A program made the translations under genes and the position numbers. Source: an uncultured Alphaproteobacteria bacterium (lineage in GTDB: Bacteria > Pseudomonadota > Alphaproteobacteria > Rhizobiales > Beijerinckiaceae). From it: DNA of 64,000 bases. The stretch's first letter is position 1. The number at the start of each line of letters is the position of its first letter. Below the pieces are notes generated by a model, which did not search any database, was not told where the DNA came from, and saw only the letters and a program-made list of their open reading frames with translations. The stretch lies in NCBI GenBank assembly GCA_963697595.1, contig CAVOON010000002.1, positions 15,564-79,563 on the forward strand, in the 5' to 3' direction. Of this stretch, positions 3,898-29,168 are shown piece by piece.

Positions 3898-4051
3898 TAG
3901 CAGTCTCGCCAATGCGGCGCAAGCTGTGACCCCAATCGTTCGCGCCGATCCGGTTTTCTGTCGCCTCATAGTGTGGATTAGCTTGCGGAGCCGTGGCATG
4001 GAAAACGCAAAGGCCGAGCATCGGCGCATCTCAAAAAGGTTATAGCCCTCC

Positions 4052-7000
4052 ATGGCGAATTCCGCTGCACAAAAATCCGTCGCCAAGGGCTCGGTCAAAG
4101 CGTCCGCAGGCGTTTTGAAAGCCACGCCGGGCGACGGGAAATGCATCTCCATTCGGGGTGCGCGTGAGCATAACCTCAAAAATGTCGATTTGATCATTCC
4201 CAGGGACAAGCTTGTCGTCTTCACAGGACTTTCGGGCTCGGGCAAGTCGTCCCTGGCTTTCGACACGATCTACGCGGAAGGGCAGCGGCGCTATGTCGAG
4301 TCCCTGTCGGCTTATGCCCGGCAGTTTCTCGAAATGATGCAAAAGCCCGACGTCGACCAGATAGACGGGCTTTCGCCGGCGATCTCCATCGAACAAAAAA
4401 CCACGTCGAAGAATCCGCGCTCAACCGTTGGAACGGTCACGGAGATTTACGACTATATGCGCCTGCTTTGGGCGCGGGTGGGCGTGCCTTACTCGCCCGC
4501 CACAGGCCTGCCGATCGAGAGCCAGACCGTTTCCCAGATGGTCGATCGCGTACTCTCATTGCCGCAGGGGACTCGGCTCTATTTGCTGGCGCCGGTCGTG
4601 CGGGGCCGTAAAGGAGAATACAAAAAGGAAATCGCGGACTATACGCGGCGTGGTTTCCAGCGACTGAAGGTCGATGGCGAATATTACGAAATAGCCGAGG
4701 CGCCGCCGCTCGACAAAAAACTGAAACACGACATTGACGTCGTGGTCGATCGCATCGTCGTGCGTCCGGACATGGCGGCGCGGCTTGCCGATAGTTTCGA
4801 GACCGCTCTGGAGTTATCTGGAGGACTGGCGGTCGCTGAGTTTGCTGATGGCGGCGCCGTAGGGAGCAATGCGGAAATTCCCGTAACCGCGACTAGTCTT
4901 CGCGTTGCGTCGCATTATGCGCCGGCGCATATCGTTTTTTCTTCGAAATTTGCTTGTCCAGTTTCCGGCTTCACGATCCCGGAGATCGAGCCGCGCCTGT
5001 TCTCCTTCAATAATCCTTTTGGCGCCTGTCCCAAATGCGGCGGCATTGGTCACGAACAAAAGATCGACGCCGACCTTGTTGTGCCGGACCCCAAGCTTAC
5101 GCTGCGGAAGGGAGCGATCGCGCCTTGGGCCAAATCTTCATCGCCTTACTACATGCAGACGCTCGAAGCGCTGGGGCGTCATTACAAATTTCGTCTGGAC
5201 ACTCCATTCCAGTCGCTGCCTTCCAATGCGCAACGCGTCATTCTCTATGGCTCGGGCGAAGAGGACATTCGTTTCTCCTACGACGACAGTTTTCGCGCCT
5301 ATGACGTGAAAAAGCCGTTCGAGGGAGTTGTTCCAAATCTGGAGCGCCGCTACCTGGAGACCGACAGCGACTGGTCTCGGGAGGAAATCGGCCGCTTCAT
5401 GTCGGCGACGCCCTGTCGCGCTTGCGGCGGCTTTCGCCTGAAGCCCGAGGCTTTGGCGGTAAAGATCGCTCACAAGCATATTGGCGAGGTTTCGGAGCTG
5501 TCCGTCCGCGCCGCGCTCGACTGGTTTTCGGCGCTGCCCTCGACACTGAGCGCCAAGCAAAACGAGATTGCCTATCGCATTTTGAAGGAAATCCGCGACC
5601 GCCTCACTTTCCTTGTCGACGTCGGGCTCGATTACCTCACATTGTCGCGCAACTCGGGCTCATTGTCCGGCGGCGAAAGTCAGCGCATCCGACTCGCTTC
5701 GCAGATCGGTTCTGGGCTGACAGGCGTGCTTTATGTGCTCGACGAGCCGTCGATCGGCCTGCATCAACGCGACAATGATCGGCTTTTGGACACATTGCGG
5801 CGACTGCGCGATCTCGGCAACAGCGTCATTGTCGTAGAACATGACGAAGACGCTATTCTCGCCGCGGATTATGTCGTCGACGTCGGCCCGGGAGCCGGCA
5901 TTCACGGCGGCAAGATTATCGCGCAGGGGACGCCGGCGCAGATCATGGCGAATCCCAAATCGCTCACCGGTCAATATCTGACCGGCGAGCGTCAGGTGAA
6001 GCTCGCACATAAATTGCGCAAGCCCGAGGCGGGCCGTTGGCTCAAGCTCTTCGGCGCGCGCGGCAATAATCTGAAGAACATTGACGCGCAGATTCCCCTT
6101 GGACTTTTCACCTGCATCACAGGCGTCTCCGGCGGCGGCAAGTCGACGCTGATCATCGAGACGCTTTACAAGGCGGTGGCGAAGAAGCTAAACGGCGCGC
6201 ACGAACATCCGGAGCCTTTCGACAAACTCGAGGGGTTGGAGCATATCGACAAGATCATTGACATTGATCAGTCGCCGATTGGCCGCACGCCACGCTCAAA
6301 TCCCGCCACCTATACGGGCGCCTTTACTCCGATCAGAGAATGGTTCGCCGGCCTACCCGAAGCCAAGGCGCGCGGCTATGCGCCGGGACGCTTTTCCTTC
6401 AATGTGAAGGGTGGCCGTTGCGAAGCCTGCCAGGGCGACGGCGTCATAAAAATCGAGATGCATTTTCTGCCTGACGTCTATGTCACTTGCGACGTCTGCA
6501 AGGGAAAGCGTTACGACCGCGAAACCCTGGAAGTAAAATATCGCGAAAAATCCATCGCCGACGTGCTCGACATGACAGTGGAAGAGGCGGCGCAATTGTT
6601 CAAAGCCGCGCCGTTGATCCGCGACAAGCTGGAGACTTTAAAACGCGTGGGGCTTGACTACGTCAGCGTGGGTCAGCAGGCGACGACGCTCTCAGGGGGC
6701 GAGGCGCAGCGCGTGAAGCTCGCCAAGGAGTTGGCCCGACGCTCTACCGGACGCACGCTCTATATTCTCGACGAGCCGACGACAGGCCTGCATTTCCACG
6801 ACGTGGCCAAGCTGCTGGAAGTGCTGCATGAACTGGTGGCGCAGGGCAACAGCGTCGTGGTCATTGAGCACAATCTGGAAGTCATCAAGACCGCGGATTG
6901 GGTCATCGACCTTGGGCCGGAGGGCGGCGACGGTGGCGGCGATATTGTTGTGGCGGGACCGCCGGCGGAGATTGTGAAGGAAAAGCGCAGCTACACGGGC

Positions 7001-10424: not shown

Positions 10425-10471
10425 TGGTGAGCGCGCCGGGGCTCGAACCCGGGACCCTCTGATTAAAAGTC
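10425..10471. repeat. att core: 47-bp duplicate of the tRNA-Lys 3' half
   Basis: TGGTGAGCGCGCCGGGGCTCGAACCCGGGACCCTCTGATTAAAAGTC is identical to 29093-29139; flanks diverge on both sides. Confidence 0.97.
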
Positions 10472-10587: not shown

Positions 10588-10609
10588 CTGGTGACACATT
10601 GGTGACACG
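10588..10609. repeat. Integrase arm-type site (left): tandem TGGTGACAC
   Basis: CTGGTGACACATTGGTGACACG matches 29014-29035 at 21 of 22 positions. Confidence 0.7.
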
Positions 10610-10794: not shown

Positions 10795-12079
10795 ATGCCA
10801 AAGATCACGAAACGCCTCATTGACGCGATCGAGCCCAGCGCCGAGCGCATAATCGTTTGGGATTCCGAGATAAAAGGCTTTGGCATGATCGCGTTGCCGA
10901 GCGGCCTTCGGTCGTTCTTTGTGCAATATCGCAACGAAAGTGGCCGCAAGCGTCGCCTCACTCTTGGACGGTTTCGGCGTGATGACCGCTGAAGGGGCGC
11001 GAAAAGCGGCGCGCGATGCGTTGGCGACGGTCGGAAGGGGCGTCGATCCCGTCGAAGATCGTCAGGCGCTACGCGCCGCGCCTAGCGTGTCACAATTGCT
11101 CGATCGCTACCTCGCTGAGCATGTGGACGTTCACAACGCCTCAAGGACCGCCGACGGTGTTCGCTTCGCGATTAAGAGGCATATTCTCCCGCGCCTCGGA
11201 ACGCTGAGGGCTGCCGCGGTCACTCGGCAGGATGTGCTCAAATTGCATGGGGCGATGCAAGCGACGCCGCGCCACGCCAATCTAACCCTTTCGATCCTGT
11301 CGAAAGCGTTCAATCTCGCCGAACTTTGGGGAATTCGACCAGAAAACTCCAATCCCTGTCGCCTGGTGCCGCGCTATCCGGAATCCCATCGCGAGCGCTT
11401 CCTTTCCGCCGACGAGCTCGCGCTTCTCGGGCGTGCTCTGCGAGAGGCGGAGTCTCCCGGGCTGCCGTGGCGCGAGAGGGCGGGTGCGAACGTGAAGCAT
11501 CTGGCTAAGGAAGAAAACCGATTTACGCCGATTAGCGCGCCCGCCCTGGAGGCTATCCGCCTACTGTTATTCACAGGAGCCAGGCTGTCTGAAATACTCG
11601 AACTGAAATGGGAGCATGTTGACCTAGCTCGGGGCTTGATCGCGCTGCCGACTCGCAAGGGCGGCTCGCGTCGCCCACATCCGGTGAGTACGATGGCGCT
11701 GGCGGTTCTCGCCAATATTGAGCGTGAACAAGGATCGCCATGGGTCTTGCCGGCTCCAAAAAACGCCCAAAAGTTTCTGACTAAATCCGTTGTTGAAAAC
11801 GCCTGGCAGCGAATTCGGGAACACGTGGGAATTCCGGATCTTCGGCTTCACGATTTGCGACATACGACCGGGACTTATGCGTCACAGGCGGGCGTGAACG
11901 CGTTCCAGGTCCGCGACCTCTTGCGCCACGCCAACATTTCAATGACGGGCCGTTACGCCAATCGAGATGACGATCCAACGCGCTCGATATCCGATATTGT
12001 CGGAGAGCGGATCGCTGCTGGATTAGAGGGGCGGGCGCTGGGCGAGGTTGTGCCGTTCAAAAGGCCTAGGCACAGGTAA
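10795..12079 (+). CDS. Tyrosine integrase with N-terminal arm-DNA-binding domain; apparent +1 frameshift at TTT 10972-10974
   Basis: MPKITKRLIDA..WDSEIKGFG...RRLTLGRF joins GVMTAEGARKAA when one T is removed. Catalytic motifs TGARLSE, RLHDLRHT, LRHANISMTGRY are present. Confidence 0.93.
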
Positions 12080-12282
12080 CAAGCTCACCAAGGAATGGGA
12101 AGCCTCTCGTTACCCACGTCGGTAACATGCGGACGTAAGAACAGCCCGCATTGAGACATTCGAACACGCGATAACGTTCTGCTCAAAAGCGGTCCAACTT
12201 ATTGCCCAAACTGAGCGCCTCCGGCGCTTCGTAATTCGCGGGCCGAAGGGCTAATTAAAGCGTCTTATAATGCTCCGGAGAC

Positions 12283-12310
12283 TTGGCAAGGGTTGCGTTT
12301 GCGCCATAAT
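12283..12310 (+). promoter_or_regulatory. Putative sigma70 promoter TTGGCA-N16-CATAAT of the peptidase-cyclase operon
   Basis: Near-consensus hexamers 37 bp upstream of ATG 12348. Confidence 0.45.
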
Positions 12311-12347
12311 GCCCTATTTTAATTCCGGGAGATTCGATATATTTGAG

Positions 12348-12884
12348 ATGGCGGAACAGACCAGCAACCCGGTGCCCGTAGGGGCGCAGAAAGCCGTTAT
12401 CTGGGCTTTCGCGGAGCGAATCGCAAGGGAGCTTAAGTTCAAGCCCAGCGACGCAATAGAATTGCTTGTTCTTCGGCTCGGCGGCAAGATTGAATACAAG
12501 AGCCCCACCCGACAGGACGGCCGATTGCCAGAATCGATTATCGTTCGATCTACAAAGGACTTTACAATCTATCTGCCGAGCATGACGTCGCCGCAACGTG
12601 ATAGGTTCACAATCGCACATGAACTCGGGCATTTTTGGTTGCATTATCCACTTGCAGCGAAAAAGGTTCCTGGTTTGCCGATGATGGCTACACGTTGGGT
12701 TGATGAATTAGATTCTGAGCTCGTTCGGACCGAGTGGGAAGCTAACTGGTTTGCTGCAGCTTTTCTTATGCCAGAAGTTCAATTTAGGGCTGCGTATAAT
12801 AAAGGCGGGGCCGATTTCGCCGCCTGCGAATTCAATGTAAGCGCGCATGCTGCAAGGGTGCGAGCGAAAAGCCTTTCTCTCTAG
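12348..12884 (+). CDS. ImmA/IrrE (Peptidase M78) zinc metallopeptidase, no N-terminal XRE HTH
   Basis: RDRFTIAHELGH (HExxH) and EWEANWFAAAFLMP motifs; the start could be as far upstream as 12270. Confidence 0.9.
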   Translation: MAEQTSNPVPVGAQKAVIWAFAERIARELKFKPSDAIELLVLRLGGKIEYKSPTRQDGRLPESIIVRSTKDFTIYLPSMTSPQRDRFTIAHELGHFWLHYPLAAKKVPGLPMMATRWVDELDSELVRTEWEANWFAAAFLMPEVQFRAAYNKGGADFAACEFNVSAHAARVRAKSLSL

Positions 12885-12892
12885 GTTGAAAC

Positions 12893-13981
12893 ATGGGGAT
12901 TTGTCCGAGCTACCGGCTCCGTCTCTTCATGTCCGTCGATCTGGTTGGGTCTACCGAGTTTAAAACGGGAGAGGGCAAAGATAGGGGAAATACTACCGAC
13001 CCTCACCCAAGGTGGGTGCAGGAAACAAAAAGATTTTATGTCAGCTTCCCTAAGTTTTTGCAGAGTCATTTTAGGGATGAATCTCCAAGATTTGGCATAA
13101 TTGAGAATGAGAGCGCGCCTAAGCTATGGAAAACAATCGGAGACGAGGTGGTTTTTTGCGTGAGAGTTCATAATTTAGAGCATTTCACTGCATGCGTTAC
13201 ATCCTTTATAAGGGCTTTAAGAGACTATGGAAGGCAATTGGAGAACGATGGGTTCCTTGACGTCAAGGGAACTATATGGGTCGGTGCCTTTCCAGCCCCA
13301 AATACAAGCGTAATGATATCTGGTTGCGATAGCAATTCTGGATATAACACCAAAATAGACGAGAACTATTGCGAGGAATATGAGCAAGCAGCTGACGATG
13401 AGCCGCGGAACTTTGATTTTTTAGGCAGAGACATTGATTTAGGATTTCGGATCGCAAAGCATGCAAGAGCAGAGGATCTCGCGTTATCATGTGAGGCCGC
13501 ATTTCTACTATGTGAAGCAAATAAGGCTCATCAATTTCATGAGAAATTTAATTTTAATGGCCGGGACGTCTTAAAGGGCGTCATGCGCGGCAAACCATAC
13601 CCGGTTGTAACCATAGATACGGAGCGTAATAATCTTAAATCAGAAATTGCAGATCTTGAGAGTAATTTATCCGGTGGCGGAGGTGCAAATGTAAACGTTA
13701 ACAGTCTTAGTAGATTTCTAACACTGTTATTTGGCGTAGAGAAAATTGCTTTTCCTGTTTTGCCAAAGCGTGGGCACGCTATTGAAGCCATGCCAAGTGA
13801 TTACAATGAGTTCGTTGGCCTTTGGCAGGAGGAGCAGTTCGAGATTACTTCTCGCGAGGAAGGAGAAGATCGTTCGGCGACTGAAGACTCCCCACCAGCG
13901 CAAGAGGGAAAAACAATCGACGAACAAGTCAACGAGCTATCTGCCAATATCCAGCCCATAGGCGAGACAGAGGATGATTGA
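12893..13981 (+). CDS. Divergent class III nucleotidyl-cyclase-like protein with acidic C-terminal tail
   Basis: Ordered motifs FMSVDLVGST (D16), WKTIGDEVV (K80, D84), FDFLGRDIDLGFRI (D175, D182, R186) and LKGV match the class III cyclase pattern. Confidence 0.7.
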   Translation: MGICPSYRLRLFMSVDLVGSTEFKTGEGKDRGNTTDPHPRWVQETKRFYVSFPKFLQSHFRDESPRFGIIENESAPKLWKTIGDEVVFCVRVHNLEHFTACVTSFIRALRDYGRQLENDGFLDVKGTIWVGAFPAPNTSVMISGCDSNSGYNTKIDENYCEEYEQAADDEPRNFDFLGRDIDLGFRIAKHARAEDLALSCEAAFLLCEANKAHQFHEKFNFNGRDVLKGVMRGKPYPVVTIDTERNNLKSEIADLESNLSGGGGANVNVNSLSRFLTLLFGVEKIAFPVLPKRGHAIEAMPSDYNEFVGLWQEEQFEITSREEGEDRSATEDSPPAQEGKTIDEQVNELSANIQPIGETEDD

Positions 13982-14109
13982 GCGCGGCGCACTGGACGAC
14001 AGTGGTATTTCTCGCCATTCTCAACGCGGTCCTGATCCTTGCGCCGCCGTATCTCGGGCAAATGCAACGAAGTAATGAGGTCACAGCCCCGCGGGAGAAC
14101 GCGGACGCT

Positions 14110-14400
14110 TCAAAGGTGTTCCATCGTCTGGAGAATTGTTTCGCAAGTCTCACGTGCGCTGCGCCCATCGTCGGCATGGCCCGTCCCGCTATTGAATGGC
14201 GCGCCGCCCGGGCCAATCTGCACAGCCCAGAACCATCGCCCATCATGCGGGCCGCCGCTGACTCGGTAAATGCGCGCCGCGGGAAGGTTGCCGAGCAAAA
14301 GCGACCAATCGTCCGCGAGAACTTCAACCACGCCATCAATCAGCGTGAACGCCGTTCGCCGCCATTTGAAGGATGCAGGGTCGGAATACGCGTTAGGCAT
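14110..14400 (-). CDS. Small hypothetical phage-type protein
   Basis: Start overlaps the SRAP stop; DW..LG.LPAARIYRVSGGPHDGRWFW looks like natural protein sequence. Confidence 0.65.
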   Translation of the reverse strand: MPNAYSDPASFKWRRTAFTLIDGVVEVLADDWSLLLGNLPAARIYRVSGGPHDGRWFWAVQIGPGGAPFNSGTGHADDGRSARETCETILQTMEHL

Positions 14401-15064
14401 TTTCGATCGGCTCGATAAGCGTCGAGTCATCGTCGCCTGCCCCGGCCTTATTCACGCGTGTAGAGACGATCCATTCTTGCAAAGCATCTTCCGGCAGCGA
14501 GTGCAGCAGTGTGGCAGCGGTTTCGCCCCTCAACCACGCTTCGGCGTCGTGCCAATCGAGAATGACAGGCATGCGGTCATGAAAGCGTTGCATCCAATTA
14601 TTCGCCCCGCCGACGATGATAGTCGCGTTTGGAAGATCGTCGCCGCCATCAAGGCCGCTCCAATGATCCCATAGGCCAGCTAACGCCAGAGGCCAGCCGT
14701 CGCGCGACGTGAAATAGTGCGGCGTCTTCGCCCCTTTCGCTCCTGTCCATTCATAGAAGCCGGAAGCCGGGATGATGCAGCGTCGATATTTGAACGCCCC
14801 GCGAAACATCGGTCTTTCAAGCACCGTTTCAGCGCGGGCGTTGAAGGTGGCGGGAAGCTCTTTGAGCGGCTTTTTCCACCAGGAGGGCACAAGGCCCCAA
14901 TACATCGGGACAAGCTCATTGCCGCGTTCGCCAGCGCGAATGACCTCTATCGGCGTCGTAGGGGCGATGTTGAAACGCGGCGCGAGATTGCGCGGCTGGC
15001 CGATTAGATCGGCTAAGCGATGGATTTCCGCCCATGAGAGATTCTGAGTGAAGCGTCCGCACAT
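14393..15064 (-). CDS. SOS response-associated peptidase (SRAP, YedK/HMCES family)
   Basis: N-terminal MCGRF, RFNIAPT, WGLVPSW, FNARAET, RRCIIPASGFYEW, HDRMPVIL. Confidence 0.95.
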   Translation of the reverse strand: MCGRFTQNLSWAEIHRLADLIGQPRNLAPRFNIAPTTPIEVIRAGERGNELVPMYWGLVPSWWKKPLKELPATFNARAETVLERPMFRGAFKYRRCIIPASGFYEWTGAKGAKTPHYFTSRDGWPLALAGLWDHWSGLDGGDDLPNATIIVGGANNWMQRFHDRMPVILDWHDAEAWLRGETAATLLHSLPEDALQEWIVSTRVNKAGAGDDDSTLIEPIENA

Positions 15065-15383: not shown

Positions 15384-16079
15384 TTAGCCGGGAGAGCCCG
15401 TAAGCTCATCGTGAGCCTTAAACGTGCTGGGGGTGAAAGGCCAAAGGTGGCGAATGAAACTCGCCTTCCACCCAATATCCAATGAATATTTTTCTGGGCG
15501 TCCGTATGAGGCCATCGCCCTGTTATATGCGACTGCGTTGACGGCATACATGCACGGCGGCTCTTCGGCATAAATCAAGGTCAGCCGTCTTTCCAGATTA
15601 TTCAAGTTATCATGCCCATTTGCATCGGCGAGCACGCTATAAATTTGCTTTCTTAATCCGGCGTGCAAGCGAGCCTTCCCACTCAAATCAAAGACAAGAT
15701 CAAGCAGCCCAACGAGTGTTGTGAAGGCTGGAATTGCGTGAGGGTAGGTTTCTTTAAGTGGCGACAATGCGGCGGTCCCGGACGCAACGACTAAGAACAT
15801 CGCAGCACGGTGCGTCCAAGCAAAAAAGCGTTCTCTATCTTCGTGATAGAGAGCGCTCGCTAGACACCTAATTCTAAAATCATCGATTCCGTCTATTTGC
15901 TGTCCCTCGGCGGTCGGACGGGAGGCGGAGCTTTGGTCTGACTGTCCTGCCGGCCAATTCCGTGATCCTTCGCTAGATCTGGATGCCCCCTCGACGGTTG
16001 AGGCTTTGGCGGTGGAGGCGGTGGTGGTGGGGGAGACGGCTTTTTCTTCTCGGTCATTTGGTTTAATATCATTTGTCAT
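15384..16079 (-). CDS. SLATT-like two-transmembrane protein
   Basis: After a disordered S/T-rich N-terminus: ALYHEDRERFF, TM1 AAMFLVVASGTAAL, TM2 AIPAFTTLVGLLDLVFDL, ARLH..LR, EEPP, AYN. Recognised by pattern only. Confidence 0.55.
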   Translation of the reverse strand: MTNDIKPNDREEKAVSPTTTASTAKASTVEGASRSSEGSRNWPAGQSDQSSASRPTAEGQQIDGIDDFRIRCLASALYHEDRERFFAWTHRAAMFLVVASGTAALSPLKETYPHAIPAFTTLVGLLDLVFDLSGKARLHAGLRKQIYSVLADANGHDNLNNLERRLTLIYAEEPPCMYAVNAVAYNRAMASYGRPEKYSLDIGWKASFIRHLWPFTPSTFKAHDELTGSPG

Positions 16080-24934: not shown

Positions 24935-25246
24935 ATGATTCGCGGCCGCACAATAGCTTTCACTCGCATCGCCGAGGCGGCGGCCCGCCAGTCGGAGACC
25001 GTTCTTTCGCGTTGGCTTCCCGACGGCCACAAAGACGCGGGCGAATGGGTGGCGCGCAATCCAAAGCGCCTGGATAAGAAGCCCGGAAGCTTCAAAATCA
25101 ATTTGCGCACCGGCCGTTGGGGCGATTTCGCTACAGGCGACAAAGGTGGCGACCTCATAGCGCTGGCCGCTTACCTCTTTAATCTTGATCAAGCGCAGGC
25201 GGCGCAGCGCGTCGCCGAAATGATGGGAATCGACCCCTTTGAATGA
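24935..25246 (+). CDS. Primase accessory (zinc-binding-domain-like) N-terminal module
   Basis: RWLPDG....EW.ARNP.R.D..PGSFKINL.TGRWGDFATGDKGGDLI.LAAYL, typical of primase N-terminal domains but without Cys ligands. Confidence 0.75.
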   Translation: MIRGRTIAFTRIAEAAARQSETVLSRWLPDGHKDAGEWVARNPKRLDKKPGSFKINLRTGRWGDFATGDKGGDLIALAAYLFNLDQAQAAQRVAEMMGIDPFE

Positions 25247-27422
25247 TCCCTTCGCGCCGATCGAAACTGCTAAGCCGAATGGTCGCGGGAATGCGCCCGC
25301 ATCGGCCGCCCCGCAGTGGATATTGATTGCTCCCGTTCCGCATGACGCTCTGGCGCCTCCGGCGCGTCATCCCAAACTTGGCGCACCATCCTCTCGTTGG
25401 GCCTATCACGACGCTTCTGGCGCCTTGCTCGGCTATATCCTCCGTTTCGACGGCGTCGACGGAAAGCAGTTTCGCCCGTTGGCGCTCTATGCGCCCGCGG
25501 CGGGCGGCGCGCCTGAGTGGCGCTGGGAGGCCTGGCCCGTTCCGCGCCCACTCTATGGGCTTGATCGCCTGGCCGCGCGACGTTCCGCTTTCGTCGTCAT
25601 CTGCGAGGGCGAGAAATCGGCTGACGCTGCGTCGCGTCTGTTGCCGGAGTTCGTTTGCGTCACCTCGCCGAACGGCTCGAAAAGCGCCGCCAAGGCCGAT
25701 TGGAGCGCTCTGCGCGGGCGGGACGTGACCGTCTGGCGCGATGCTGACGCGCCAGGGCTGGAATATGCGCAGAAGGTCGCCGAGCTATGCGCAGCGGCCG
25801 GCGCGGCCTCCATCGCCATCGTTACGGTGCCCGAAGGCGTCGCGGAAGGCTGGGACGCTGCCGACGCCGAGCAAGACGGCTGGACGCCGGCGCGCGCTCT
25901 CGACTTGATCGGTGCGGCGGAATCCTTTGAAAAAACCGCTGAGCCGGAAGCGAAAAAGGGAAAAGCAAAAAAAGAGCGCCGCACGCCGCAGCGCGATTTG
26001 TTCATGGCTCTGACGAAGGACTCCGCGTTGTGGCATGGGCCGGATTATGAAGCCTTCGTAACAGTTCCAATAAACTCGCATCGCGAAAGTTGGCCGGTGC
26101 GCTCGCAGGCTTTCCGCAGATGGCTCGCCATGCGCGCCTATGAGGCTCACGGCGTTGCGCCGGGAGGACAGGCGCTTGAAGATGTTATTCGCATCCTGGA
26201 GGCTCGCGCCGTCAGCGAGGGCGTGTTGCAAACGCCGTGGCGCCGGGTCGGCGCGCGCGATGGGAAGCTTTACATCGATCTTGCGGATTCGAAATGGCGC
26301 GCCGTCGAAATTCGCCCCACGGGTCGCACGCTCCTTGAGGCCCATGATCTGCCATTCGTGCGCTCTCCAAGAATGCGCGAACTCTGTTCGCCGCTCGGTG
26401 GATCTTCTATCAACGAGCTGCGTCCTTTCGCCAACGTCGCCAGCGATGATGACTTTATCCTTGTCGTCGCCTGGCTGGTCGCATCCTTTCGCGAGCGTGG
26501 GCCATATCCGATCTTGGTTTTGAACGGCGAGCAAGGATCTGGAAAATCCAGCTTTTCACGTCTGCTACGAAGCCTGCTTGATCCATCCTCTCCGGCTATC
26601 CAGGGGCCTCCGAAAGACGAACAAAATTTGATCGTCTCGGCGCAAAACGGGCATGTGCTCGCCTTCGACAATCTGTCGCATATTTCGCCGGAATTATCGG
26701 ACGGCCTTTGTCGTCTCGCAACGGGCAGCGGCTTCGCCGTGCGAGCGCTGCATACTGATAAGGATGAAAATATTTTCGACGGCGCTCGGCCGATCATCGT
26801 CAATGGAATACCGTCGCTTGCCGAGAGGCCGGATTTAAACGAGCGCGCGATCGTCGTGAGACTTGCTACCATTCCGGACGATAAACGCCGCCCTGAAGAC
26901 GAGCTCGAAGCTGAATGGGAAAAAGCGCGCCCGCGCGTGCTGGGCGCCATCTGCGCCGCACTGTCGACGGCGCTGAAAAACATCGGAAAGACGCGACTTG
27001 CGCGCTCCGGCCGCATGGCGGACTTCGAAAAATGGATCACGGCCGCTGAGCCGGGGCTTGATTGGGAACTGGGCACTTTTTCTCGCGCCTATTTGTCAAA
27101 TCGCAAAGACAGCGCCGAAACGGCGTTCGAAGGCGACCTGGTGGCGATGGCCATTCGCGAATTGCTCGTTTCCGATGACTGTTATTACTGGACTGGAACC
27201 GCCACTGAATTGCTCAATCGCCTTGGCGTGATTGTCGGCGAGTCGACACGCCAAATGCGCCTTTGGCCGAAGACGGCGCAAGGTCTCGGCAATAGCCTGG
27301 AGCGCTCGGCGCCGCTGTTGCGCGGCAAAGGAATCACAATCGAGCGAAAACATTCTGGCGTTCGATCGATCATCCTTTCGCGCGCGCGCGAGCCGGCGAC
27401 TCCGCCTGCAAACACGATATGA
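25239..27422 (+). CDS. Primase (TOPRIM)-helicase (P-loop ATPase) fusion replication protein
   Basis: ICEGEKSADAA and VWRDADAPG (TOPRIM); VLNGEQGSGKS (Walker A); LAFDN (Walker B); C-terminal winged-helix-like WP......G..L.R..P.LR..GI.I. Confidence 0.9.
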   Translation: MNDPFAPIETAKPNGRGNAPASAAPQWILIAPVPHDALAPPARHPKLGAPSSRWAYHDASGALLGYILRFDGVDGKQFRPLALYAPAAGGAPEWRWEAWPVPRPLYGLDRLAARRSAFVVICEGEKSADAASRLLPEFVCVTSPNGSKSAAKADWSALRGRDVTVWRDADAPGLEYAQKVAELCAAAGAASIAIVTVPEGVAEGWDAADAEQDGWTPARALDLIGAAESFEKTAEPEAKKGKAKKERRTPQRDLFMALTKDSALWHGPDYEAFVTVPINSHRESWPVRSQAFRRWLAMRAYEAHGVAPGGQALEDVIRILEARAVSEGVLQTPWRRVGARDGKLYIDLADSKWRAVEIRPTGRTLLEAHDLPFVRSPRMRELCSPLGGSSINELRPFANVASDDDFILVVAWLVASFRERGPYPILVLNGEQGSGKSSFSRLLRSLLDPSSPAIQGPPKDEQNLIVSAQNGHVLAFDNLSHISPELSDGLCRLATGSGFAVRALHTDKDENIFDGARPIIVNGIPSLAERPDLNERAIVVRLATIPDDKRRPEDELEAEWEKARPRVLGAICAALSTALKNIGKTRLARSGRMADFEKWITAAEPGLDWELGTFSRAYLSNRKDSAETAFEGDLVAMAIRELLVSDDCYYWTGTATELLNRLGVIVGESTRQMRLWPKTAQGLGNSLERSAPLLRGKGITIERKHSGVRSIILSRAREPATPPANTI

Positions 27423-27442: not shown

Positions 27443-27826
27443 ATGAAGGAAGCCGGATCAATGCAAAATGAGAATGCGGCGGAGAGTGAAAGCGCCCCAG
27501 TTCCGCTCGCGACATGGGCTCTCGCGCAGACAACGAAAAGCCCTTGCGCGAAGGCCGTTTTGCTGGCGCTCGCGGCAAGCGCCGGCGCTGACGACATTGC
27601 GTTCGTCACGCCGCGCCAGTTAGGGATCCAAACTGAGCTAACCGCCTACAATGCTTCAAAGTGGCTCAAGCGACTAATAACGCTTGGCCTCGCAAAGCGA
27701 TTAGGCGCGCCGAATCTGACTACGCCGACCGCCTATCAATTGAGGCCAAGCCAGCGCGAAAGCGAACGCCGCATGGCCCATATGGAAGTGAAGGTCGCCG
27801 GAGAACCGATCTATGACGAACGCTAA
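27443..27826 (+). CDS. Stand-alone winged-helix (phage replication-initiator N-terminus-like) protein, copy 1
   Basis: ATWALAQTTKSPCAKAVLLALA...TPRQLGIQTELT.....KWLKRL..LGL (alternative start 27461). Confidence 0.75.
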   Translation: MKEAGSMQNENAAESESAPVPLATWALAQTTKSPCAKAVLLALAASAGADDIAFVTPRQLGIQTELTAYNASKWLKRLITLGLAKRLGAPNLTTPTAYQLRPSQRESERRMAHMEVKVAGEPIYDER

Positions 27827-29013: not shown

Positions 29014-29035
29014 CTGGTGACATATTGGTGACACG
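29014..29035. repeat. Integrase arm-type site (right)
   Basis: CTGGTGACATATTGGTGACACG, 21/22 identical to 10588-10609. Confidence 0.7.
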
Positions 29036-29092: not shown

Positions 29093-29168
29093 TGGTGAGC
29101 GCGCCGGGGCTCGAACCCGGGACCCTCTGATTAAAAGTCAGATGCTCTACCGACTGAGCTACGCGCTC
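29093..29168 (-). tRNA. tRNA-Lys (anticodon UUU)
   Basis: 76 nt GAGCGCGTAGCTCAGTCGGTAGAGCATCTGACTTTTAATCAGAGGGTCCCGGGTTCGAGCCCCGGCGCGCTCACCA; full cloverleaf with encoded CCA. Confidence 0.98.

Follow-up and report, generated by a model that had tools for sequence, protein, structure and literature searches.

A mobile gene pair of a minimal M78 peptidase and a divergent class III cyclase-like protein, probably an undescribed relative of cyclic-nucleotide antiviral systems

Pycsar cyclases and M78 (ImmA/IrrE) peptidases are the described proteins to which the locus studied here must be compared. PycTM is a three-transmembrane (3TM) effector of the pJV1-spdB3 type that serves Pycsar and Pucsar cyclases, and it has no separate domain for binding cyclic nucleoside monophosphates (cNMPs) (preprint 10.64898/2026.08.12.744502). 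This survey of immune cNMP cyclases makes no mention of an association with M78. In the M78 proteins CapP and IrrE a helix-turn-helix (HTH) and a GAF domain are added to the peptidase, and the peptidase and GAF domains flank a groove that binds single-stranded DNA (ssDNA) (PMC13228613). Makarova listed COG2856 operons in the phages phiC2 and LE1 generically in 2009, and the partner was not named (PMC2701414). Here we consider two adjacent genes in a 64,000-nucleotide stretch of contig CAVOON010000002.1 (the window), from an uncultured alphaproteobacterium of the Beijerinckiaceae. Gene 1 encodes an M78 peptidase and gene 2 a divergent class III cyclase-like protein. Our reading of the literature on M78, ImmA or COG2856 together with cyclases, Pycsar, RosmerTA or prophages found no description of this pair.

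We argue that these genes make up one self-contained module that spreads by horizontal transfer, probably an undescribed relative of the cyclic-nucleotide antiviral systems in which a new cyclase family is joined to a protease partner. The argument draws on the modelled folds of both proteins, their catalytic residues, the pairing and co-divergence of the two genes across genomes and mobile elements, and the Pycsar effectors and the cNMP channel found beside relatives. Both open reading frames (ORFs) must be real genes, since homologues of each number in the hundreds to thousands and reach E-values of 1e-100 and lower.

Sequence models do not recognise gene 2. It has no match in Pfam, NCBIfam or PADLOC, and the PADLOC model of PycC does not match it at E-values up to 1. 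A word-indexed homologue search with gene 2 gave 98 clusters. None of these 98 family members matches PF00211 even at an E-value of 10, and 5 of them match DUF2652 weakly. When the family profile was run against the sequences of the PDB it returned noise only and no cyclase. The only PHROGs that gene 2 matches are two of unknown function, among them PHROG 18024 (E 1.6e-33). The family is a large one; an exhaustive profile search extends it to 2,233 clusters at 50% identity (E-values up to 1e-3), of which 1,320 lie below 1e-30.

The modelled structure suggests an identity for gene 2. An AlphaFold2 model run with the 98-sequence alignment has a predicted local distance difference test score (pLDDT) of 93 and a predicted template modelling score (pTM) of 0.88. 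When it was compared with the PDB using Foldseek, the top 50 matches were all catalytic domains of class III adenylyl or guanylyl cyclases. The best match is CyaB of Pseudomonas aeruginosa (3r5g, E 5e-10, TM-score 0.72), and the TM-scores against class III cyclases are 0.7-0.77 when normalised to the targets. A search of a viral structure library with the same model also yields cyclase domains, and GGDEF proteins appear only far down that list. We rejected a GGDEF or a Cas10/mCpol palm identity for gene 2 since the top structural matches are all class III cyclases. A structure model had been proposed as a check in the original prediction, which was made from the letters of the window alone, and the AlphaFold2 model does have the class III cyclase fold, a palm-type catalytic domain of beta-alpha-beta-beta-alpha-beta topology.

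The residues were placed by aligning the family profile, using hhalign, with class III sequences recovered from the PDB with a consensus bait. This register has a probability of 2%, fits the motifs and served for residue mapping alongside the fold match. It puts D16 (SVDLVGST) and D84 (KTIGDE) at the metal-binding aspartates of the F-x-D-x-x-G-x-T and G-D motifs, K80 and D175 at the Lys/Asp pair that specifies adenine, R186 at the catalytic arginine and K228 (LKGV) at the lysine of the KG motif. The position of the transition-state asparagine is occupied by D182. Aspartate is invariant there, so the family has the arginine of the N-x-x-x-R pair without the asparagine. D84 is invariant both in a 36-sequence alignment and among the 98 sequences; D16 is invariant in the former and at least 90% conserved in the latter. 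K80, D175 and R186 are at least 90% conserved, while G178 and D182 are invariant. Apart from K228R in the Phenylobacterium group and at one other locus, the mapped active-site residues are kept in all intact bacterial homologues examined. The original prediction was right that gene 2 has both metal-binding aspartates. It also saw the other class III motifs in order; K80/D175, R186 and K228 are there, with an aspartate at the place of the catalytic asparagine. Since the Lys80/Asp175 pair is typical of adenylyl cyclases, ATP is the likely substrate, and the residues say that gene 2 probably works on an ATP or adenine type of molecule.

The region after the catalytic domain varies within the family. 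It is helical in proteins of the window type, and it is a NUDIX domain in the phage and Firmicutes-type clade and at one Spirochaete locus. In Aquabacter sediminis (L005:8001-9368) an XRE-type HTH_3 domain is fused at the C-terminus of the cyclase (E 4e-13), and the M78 gene still lies upstream.

Gene 1 is a peptidase domain and nothing more. Its reading frame opens at 12270. We favour the ATG at 12348 as the start because more than 100 close homologues are 176-185 amino acids (aa) long with the same N-terminus. The stop is the TAG at 12882-12884, and the spacer to gene 2, whose ATG is at 12893, is exactly 8 bp (GTTGAAAC), the distance originally given for the pair. The HELGH motif is at residues 91-95 (12618-12632; H91 and H95) and EWEAN at residues 129-133 (E129 and E131). 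Both motifs are invariant among the partner M78 proteins, so we expect that the gene 1 protease should be active, and the intact HExxH...E first read in the sequence is borne out. It had also been proposed that the pair has its own promoter-like sequence. Such a sequence is present, matching at 10 of 12 positions, and such sites are no more numerous in this region than in shuffled sequence, so it is suggestive only.

The closest solved sequence to gene 1 is CapP (7t5t). The AlphaFold2 model (pLDDT 95.8) gives significant Foldseek matches in the PDB only to CapP 7t5t, to IrrE/PprI (3dti, 8sln) and to a related Mycobacterium tuberculosis regulator. These solved relatives are 240-330 aa long, compared to 178 aa for gene 1. 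In PADLOC the best model is capP (E 2.7e-22), and gene 1 covers only positions 8-150 of its 242-position profile. The RmrA models match more weakly (E 8e-11) and in the peptidase part only (profile positions about 180-270). Pfam, profile coverage and structure comparison agree that gene 1 is without the HTH and GAF domains of CapP and IrrE, and Pfam finds no HTH in gene 2 either. The original prediction drew an analogy to switches triggered by ssDNA. This need not carry over to gene 1. The domains that form the ssDNA groove are absent, so such a trigger should not be assumed, and we set an ssDNA-sensing role aside. Public reads over gene 1 amount to three short DNA contigs and one metatranscriptome contig, which is too few to judge expression. 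The latter is environmental (run X2) and covers 12363-12618 with 4 mismatches in 256 bases. It suggests, though weakly, that an almost identical M78 gene is transcribed somewhere.

The two genes are conserved as a unit. We surveyed GTDB with one genome per species and obtained 51 loci encoding a relative of gene 2. In 35 of these the next gene upstream, on the same strand, is an M78 gene that either overlaps the cyclase gene or ends a few bases before it. Among the taxa are Rhizobiales, Rhodobacterales, Caulobacterales, Acetobacteraceae, Moraxella and Methylobacillus, and also Verrucomicrobia, Leptospiraceae, Spirochaetaceae, Gemmataceae and Armatimonadia. The association holds from the other side too, as independently picked close homologues of the M78 protein in Bradyrhizobium and Methylosinus have the same gene of 365-373 aa downstream. 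The pair is also found in an Azospirillum genome, among housekeeping genes, and on other mobile elements. Among viral contigs of IMG/VR that carry the cyclase gene, M78 is directly upstream in 26 of 28. The Clostridioides difficile phages phiC2 (p42 and p41) and phiCD27 (gp38 and gp37) have the pair, and so do the Leptospira phage LE1 (gp81 and gp80) and a plasmid of Leptospira interrogans. Looking at the cyclase gene alone, there are homologues in the phages CDKM9, phiCDHM19 and phiCD508 and on plasmids of Sphingomonas, Tistrella and Mycolicibacterium. Pairwise distances of the M78 proteins and of the cyclases are correlated (r = 0.90, Mantel p = 0.001, 31 pairs). No third gene is conserved beside the pair in the genomic neighbourhoods; the flanks differ in every locus. 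A survey of this kind had been proposed as a check on whether the pair is conserved, and it is. It must be noted that the cyclase gene is split into two or three ORFs at five loci (L009, L020, L021, L023 and L024) and that M78 is also split in L009 and L024. These may be decayed copies or errors in the assembly of metagenome-derived genomes.

The link to cyclic-nucleotide immunity comes from the neighbours. Among 132 genes within two positions of the pair Pfam finds no common family, and three are PycTM proteins, the 3TM effector of Pycsar (L002, L031 and L046). They score 31-37 bits in Pfam against a cut-off of 27.2, and their E-values with the PADLOC PycTM model reach 1.6e-26. The scanned genes that flank these three have no Pfam cyclase domain, which leaves the gene 2 relative as the only recognisable cyclase-fold protein there. 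A recognisable canonical Pycsar cyclase beside the three PycTM genes is thereby excluded, and a motif search found no canonical class III cyclase in any locus examined.

A profile built from the three proteins was used to look for more. It finds p40 of phiC2 (L052:5417-5935, minus strand), which is annotated as a hypothetical protein and lies convergently right after the cyclase gene (hmmsearch E 5.8e-9; hhalign 85%, E 6.6e-6). We liken gp36 of phiCD27 (L066:4417-4935, minus strand) to p40 by its length and position alone. A cluster of three genes lies between integrase and lysis genes in both phages: an upstream one annotated 'metallo-protease', a cyclase-NUDIX gene, and p40 or gp36. The profile also finds PycTM-like ORFs in two IMG/VR contigs (L086:3794-6359 and L093:3766-6314). 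Here the PycTM-like gene comes first in a co-directional operon, followed by M78 and then the cyclase, with gaps of 4-19 bp, and the cyclases (472-481 aa) belong to the same clade as the NUDIX-fused homologues. A relative that lacks M78, P0093 (302 aa), is encoded about 600 bp downstream of a channel gene with Ion_trans and cNMP_binding domains (L058/L059:2006-3382, 4001-4909). This is independent contextual support for a cyclic mononucleotide as the product. Restriction genes of types I, IIG and III and the PADLOC candidates PDC-S05 and PDC-S15 also occur within two genes of the pair. Of two branches in the original prediction, the one with an alarm nucleotide is favoured by the PycTM neighbours and by the channel. 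Its contrast between the pair and Pycsar has to be given up, since relatives of the pair do adjoin a Pycsar effector.

Table 1. Coordinates of the gene pair, its parts and its surroundings in the window, and of the PycTM genes beside three genomic relatives (locus labels in front of the positions)
Feature	Position	Strand or orientation	Basis or remark
Gene 1, M78 (ImmA/IrrE) zinc metallopeptidase, peptidase domain only, 178 aa	12348..12884	+	Pfam Peptidase_M78 PF06114, E 7e-18
Gene 2, divergent class III nucleotide-cyclase-like protein, 362 aa	12893..13981	+	AlphaFold2 and Foldseek; family unannotated
Gene 2 cyclase catalytic domain, residues about 8-246	12914..13630	+	Holds D16, K80, D84, E85, D175, D182, R186 and K228
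Gene 2 C-terminal extension	13631..13978	+	Helices at residues 247-352, then an acidic tail of lower confidence (AlphaFold2)
Promoter-like site TTGGCA-16-CATAAT	12283..12310	+	10/12 positions match; within the longer gene 1 ORF
Terminator-like hairpin just 3' of gene 2	13990..14004	+	Consensus scan; count not above chance
Tyrosine integrase	about 10796..12079	+	Pfam Phage_integrase, E 5.6e-24; directly upstream of the pair
Left attachment (att) direct repeat, displaced tRNA-Lys 3' fragment	10425..10471	.	Identical to 29093-29139
tRNA-Lys(UUU)	29093..29168	-	3' half (29093-29139) is the right att repeat
PycTM neighbour	L002:6748-7236	divergent, just upstream of pair	Pfam, PADLOC
PycTM neighbour	L031:9260-9874	convergent, just downstream of pair	Pfam, PADLOC
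PycTM neighbour	L046:9145-9735	convergent, just downstream of pair	Pfam, PADLOC

In the window the pair is carried by an island of 18.7 kb with perfect 47-bp direct repeats (100% identical) at both edges. The integrase lies at one end; near the other are genes for a Toprim primase-like protein (25239-27422) and a MarR/RepO-like protein (27443-27826). No capsid or terminase match was found among the island ORFs scanned. The element is an integrative island with a satellite-like build and not a full prophage. The pair sits right after the integrase, in what had been called the cargo slot. It is AT-richer as well, just as the original prediction had it: the GC content is 0.43-0.53 over 12200-14000 compared to 0.57-0.63 on either side. 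The integrase is read in two frames, with an apparent shift near 10969-10985 in the ORF layout. One frame holds the arm-binding N-terminus (MPKITKRL...RKRRLTLG) and another the remainder, and tblastn with a homologous integrase (locus L013) matched the window integrase in both. This is either a frameshift, a pseudogene or a sequencing error.

Several other features of the island are recorded here for completeness. A 22-bp repeat, CTGGTGACAyATTGGTGACACG, lies just within both island ends (10588-10609 and 29014-29035) and itself holds an internal duplication of GGTGACA. These repeats may be arm-type binding sites of the integrase. An SOS-response-associated peptidase (SRAP) gene is convergent just downstream of the pair (14393-15064, minus strand, E 9e-63), and a short SRAP gene (72 aa, L065:1941-2159) is near an M78-cyclase pair on an unrelated mobile element with ParA and an integrase. 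The ORF at 15384-16079 (minus strand, 231 aa) has a low-complexity N-terminus rich in Ser, Thr and Ala and two hydrophobic segments, and it matches PHROG 11791 of unknown function (E 8.5e-15). We considered this membrane protein as a PycTM effector and rejected it: it is unrelated to PycTM and is not kept near other pairs. The ORF at 13978-14418 (plus strand, 146 aa) has a TTG start, overlaps the gene 2 stop and begins with a hydrophobic helix. It is Arg/Ala-rich, is in high-GC DNA and spans the terminator-like hairpin, and it is probably spurious.

The explanation that we prefer is a protease-controlled, Pycsar-like defence module that signals with a cNMP, probably one of adenine. We give it about an even chance. 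The gene 2 protein would be a homodimeric class III enzyme that most likely turns ATP into a cyclic adenine mononucleotide. The gene 1 protease, probably coupled to the cyclase in translation, would act as its regulator. There are two routes by which it might do so. The protease could restrain the cyclase until infection upsets the balance, which is the logic of a toxin and its antitoxin, or it could activate the cyclase by cutting its variable C-terminal extension. Arrest or death of the infected cell would then follow from the nucleotide product. In several relatives the output would pass through the adjoining PycTM membrane effector. For the window copy it might pass through an effector encoded elsewhere or a host cNMP receptor, or the effect could be a drain on nucleotides. 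We infer the cyclase activity and its product, the action of the protease on the cyclase and its direction, the trigger and the antiviral role.

One can imagine a more general scenario in which an M78 protease, in place of a ligand-binding domain, is the gate of an immune cyclase. This would be a protease-gated cNMP alarm pathway, and we put it forward tentatively, as an idea that is rather doubtful at present. The minimal M78 peptidase in such a pathway may sense infection or be its target, turning adenine-type cyclases of a new family on or off by proteolysis. The pathway would be common to prophages of Firmicutes and Spirochaetes and to islands of Proteobacteria, Planctomycetes and Verrucomicrobia. 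PycTM, the fused NUDIX domain or host receptors would be its interchangeable outputs.

A protease-controlled defence module is not the only way to read the pair. An addiction module of the RosmerTA type would have a cyclase-like toxin that drains nucleoside triphosphates or floods the cell with cyclic nucleotide, and an M78 antitoxin that degrades or sequesters it. Its main role would be to keep the mobile element stable, and defence might come as a by-product. The layout suits this: the cassette has two genes, the putative antitoxin comes first, and the second gene overlaps it or follows within a few bp. The cassette is spread patchily over mobile elements with flanks that are always different, and most loci have no separate effector. 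M78 domains are also established antitoxin hubs whose toxin partners are swapped (PMC10440598, PMC2701414), and gene 1 does match the RmrA models. However, it lacks the HTH borne by RmrA and by most M78 antitoxins, and gene 2 matches no RmrT model. Stand-alone cyclases without M78 persist in conserved chromosomal contexts with their active sites intact, which argues against intrinsic toxicity, and neighbours such as PycTM and the cNMP channel suit a signal and not a poison. We consider an addiction module unlikely. A switch for the mobile element itself is less probable again, and we give it little weight. An ImmA-like anti-repressor protease would cleave the repressor of the element or phage, and the cyclase-like protein would be a sensor or cofactor tying induction, excision or lysogeny decisions to the nucleotide status or the physiology of the cell. 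Pairs do lie in lysogeny or immunity regions, by the integrase in the window, by the CI repressor in LE1, and between the integrase or regulators and the lysis genes in phiC2 and phiCD27. ImmA, IrrE and CapP, the characterised M78 peptidases considered here, cleave XRE repressors (PMC2701414, PMC13228613), and the Aquabacter cyclase-like protein has its XRE HTH fused C-terminally. Against this, the neighbourhood scans found no conserved HTH gene adjoining the pair, and the pair is also found on plasmids and at ordinary chromosomal sites where neither a repressor nor an integrase is close by. Such a switch would leave both the PycTM neighbours and the strict conservation of the cyclase active site unexplained.

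The points that weigh against a Pycsar-like defence module must be considered together with the most mundane alternative, which is ordinary second-messenger signalling with the upstream gene, be it M78, STAS or another, as a regulator, no role in conflict and a chance uptake by mobile elements. Stand-alone cyclases without M78 are in conserved chromosomal synteny with a POT transporter and a hydrolase in Phenylobacterium. P0080 (272 aa) is encoded 16 bp downstream of a gene for a STAS protein (L062:375-704 and 720-1538; also L063). These copies show that the enzyme family has non-conflict uses too, and they count for the signalling alternative, as do the subfamily with the cNMP-gated channel and the Azospirillum pair amid housekeeping genes. 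The STAS neighbour suggests that the upstream position is a slot for regulators, occupied by different proteins in different subfamilies. Even so, we regard ordinary signalling as very improbable for the pair. There is strong enrichment of the M78-paired form on mobile DNA (prophages, viral contigs, plasmids and islands), and the taxa that have it are patchily scattered, from phages of Firmicutes to Planctomycetes. The window pair differs from its host in GC content, and PycTM and restriction genes are among the neighbours. Other points count against the defence module on their own account. By sequence profiles gene 2 does not group with PycC or PF00211, and the hhalign probability is as low as given above. 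The change from Asn to Asp at D182 and an invariant Glu after D84 mean that the chemistry may not be ordinary cyclisation. No effector is recognisable at the window locus or at about 30 of the 35 genomic loci with the pair, and several of the PycTM neighbours are on the opposite strand, so their co-regulation with it is uncertain. We still hold a protease-controlled, Pycsar-like module to be the best explanation.

To our knowledge there is no account of how Pycsar-type cyclases stay silent and then switch on upon infection. A cyclase family partnered with a protease offers a concrete and testable regulatory step for immune cyclases. The original prediction knew of no named system with this pair, and we know of none either, as gene 2 is without a model in PADLOC 2.0, Pfam or NCBIfam and the literature did not yield the pair. 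It is a candidate system that present defence-finding tools would miss. A modelled fold and a likely activity can now be proposed for a protein family of about 2,200 clusters that is absent from domain libraries, and 'hypothetical' genes of well-known C. difficile and Leptospira phages are re-annotated. If the product is cAMP or a close relative of it, how is an immune signal separated from housekeeping cAMP signalling?

It is worth setting the pair beside each of the known systems in turn. The class III adenylyl cyclases (CyaB of P. aeruginosa, CyaC of Spirulina, Rv1900c and Ma1120) have the catalytic fold of gene 2 and the same arrangement of residues for metal, substrate and transition state. 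Their identity to gene 2 is only about 13%, and there is no sequence match at the profile level. Gene 2 differs from them in the Asp for the catalytic Asn, the GDE motif, an acidic insert at residues about 140-172 and the extra C-terminal helices. RosmerTA, which consists of the toxin RmrT and the HTH-M78 protein RmrA, is also a mobile two-gene cassette of an M78 component and a variable partner, and gene 1 resembles RmrA weakly. However, gene 1 has no HTH, gene 2 fits no RmrT family and the gene order here is fixed. ImmA/ImmR of ICEBs1 and temperate phages likewise has an M78 protease encoded next to the integrase or the immunity region of its mobile element. The difference is that the pair has no adjoining repressor, and the partner of its protease is a cyclase-fold enzyme of 362 aa. 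CapP of the CapP/CapH pair of CBASS and IrrE (PprI) of the IrrE/DdrO pair of Deinococcus are closest to gene 1 in sequence and fold, and in the CapP case a protease also accompanies a nucleotide-signalling immune enzyme. Gene 1 is unlike both in being a peptidase only, without the ssDNA-binding HTH and GAF domains. There is no XRE substrate gene like CapH or DdrO either, and the conserved partner is the enzyme itself.

Pycsar and its cGMP offshoot Pucsar have a cyclase of the class III fold on defence islands or mobile elements, as the pair does. The differences from Pycsar are several. Gene 2 is not recognised by the PycC or PF00211 models, and it has the adenine-type Lys/Asp, the Asp in place of the catalytic Asn and a C-terminal extension. 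K80 and D175 suggest a purine (adenine) substrate, whereas Pycsar makes a cyclic pyrimidine and defends against phages through abortive infection. The cyclase of the pair has an M78 protease as its obligate partner, and no PycTM or PycTIR effector was found beside the window copy. Several relatives of the pair nevertheless adjoin PycTM, the 3TM effector of the pJV1-spdB3 type. Because these relatives stand next to the Pycsar effector itself, we argue that the pair is better seen as a Pycsar-like variant.

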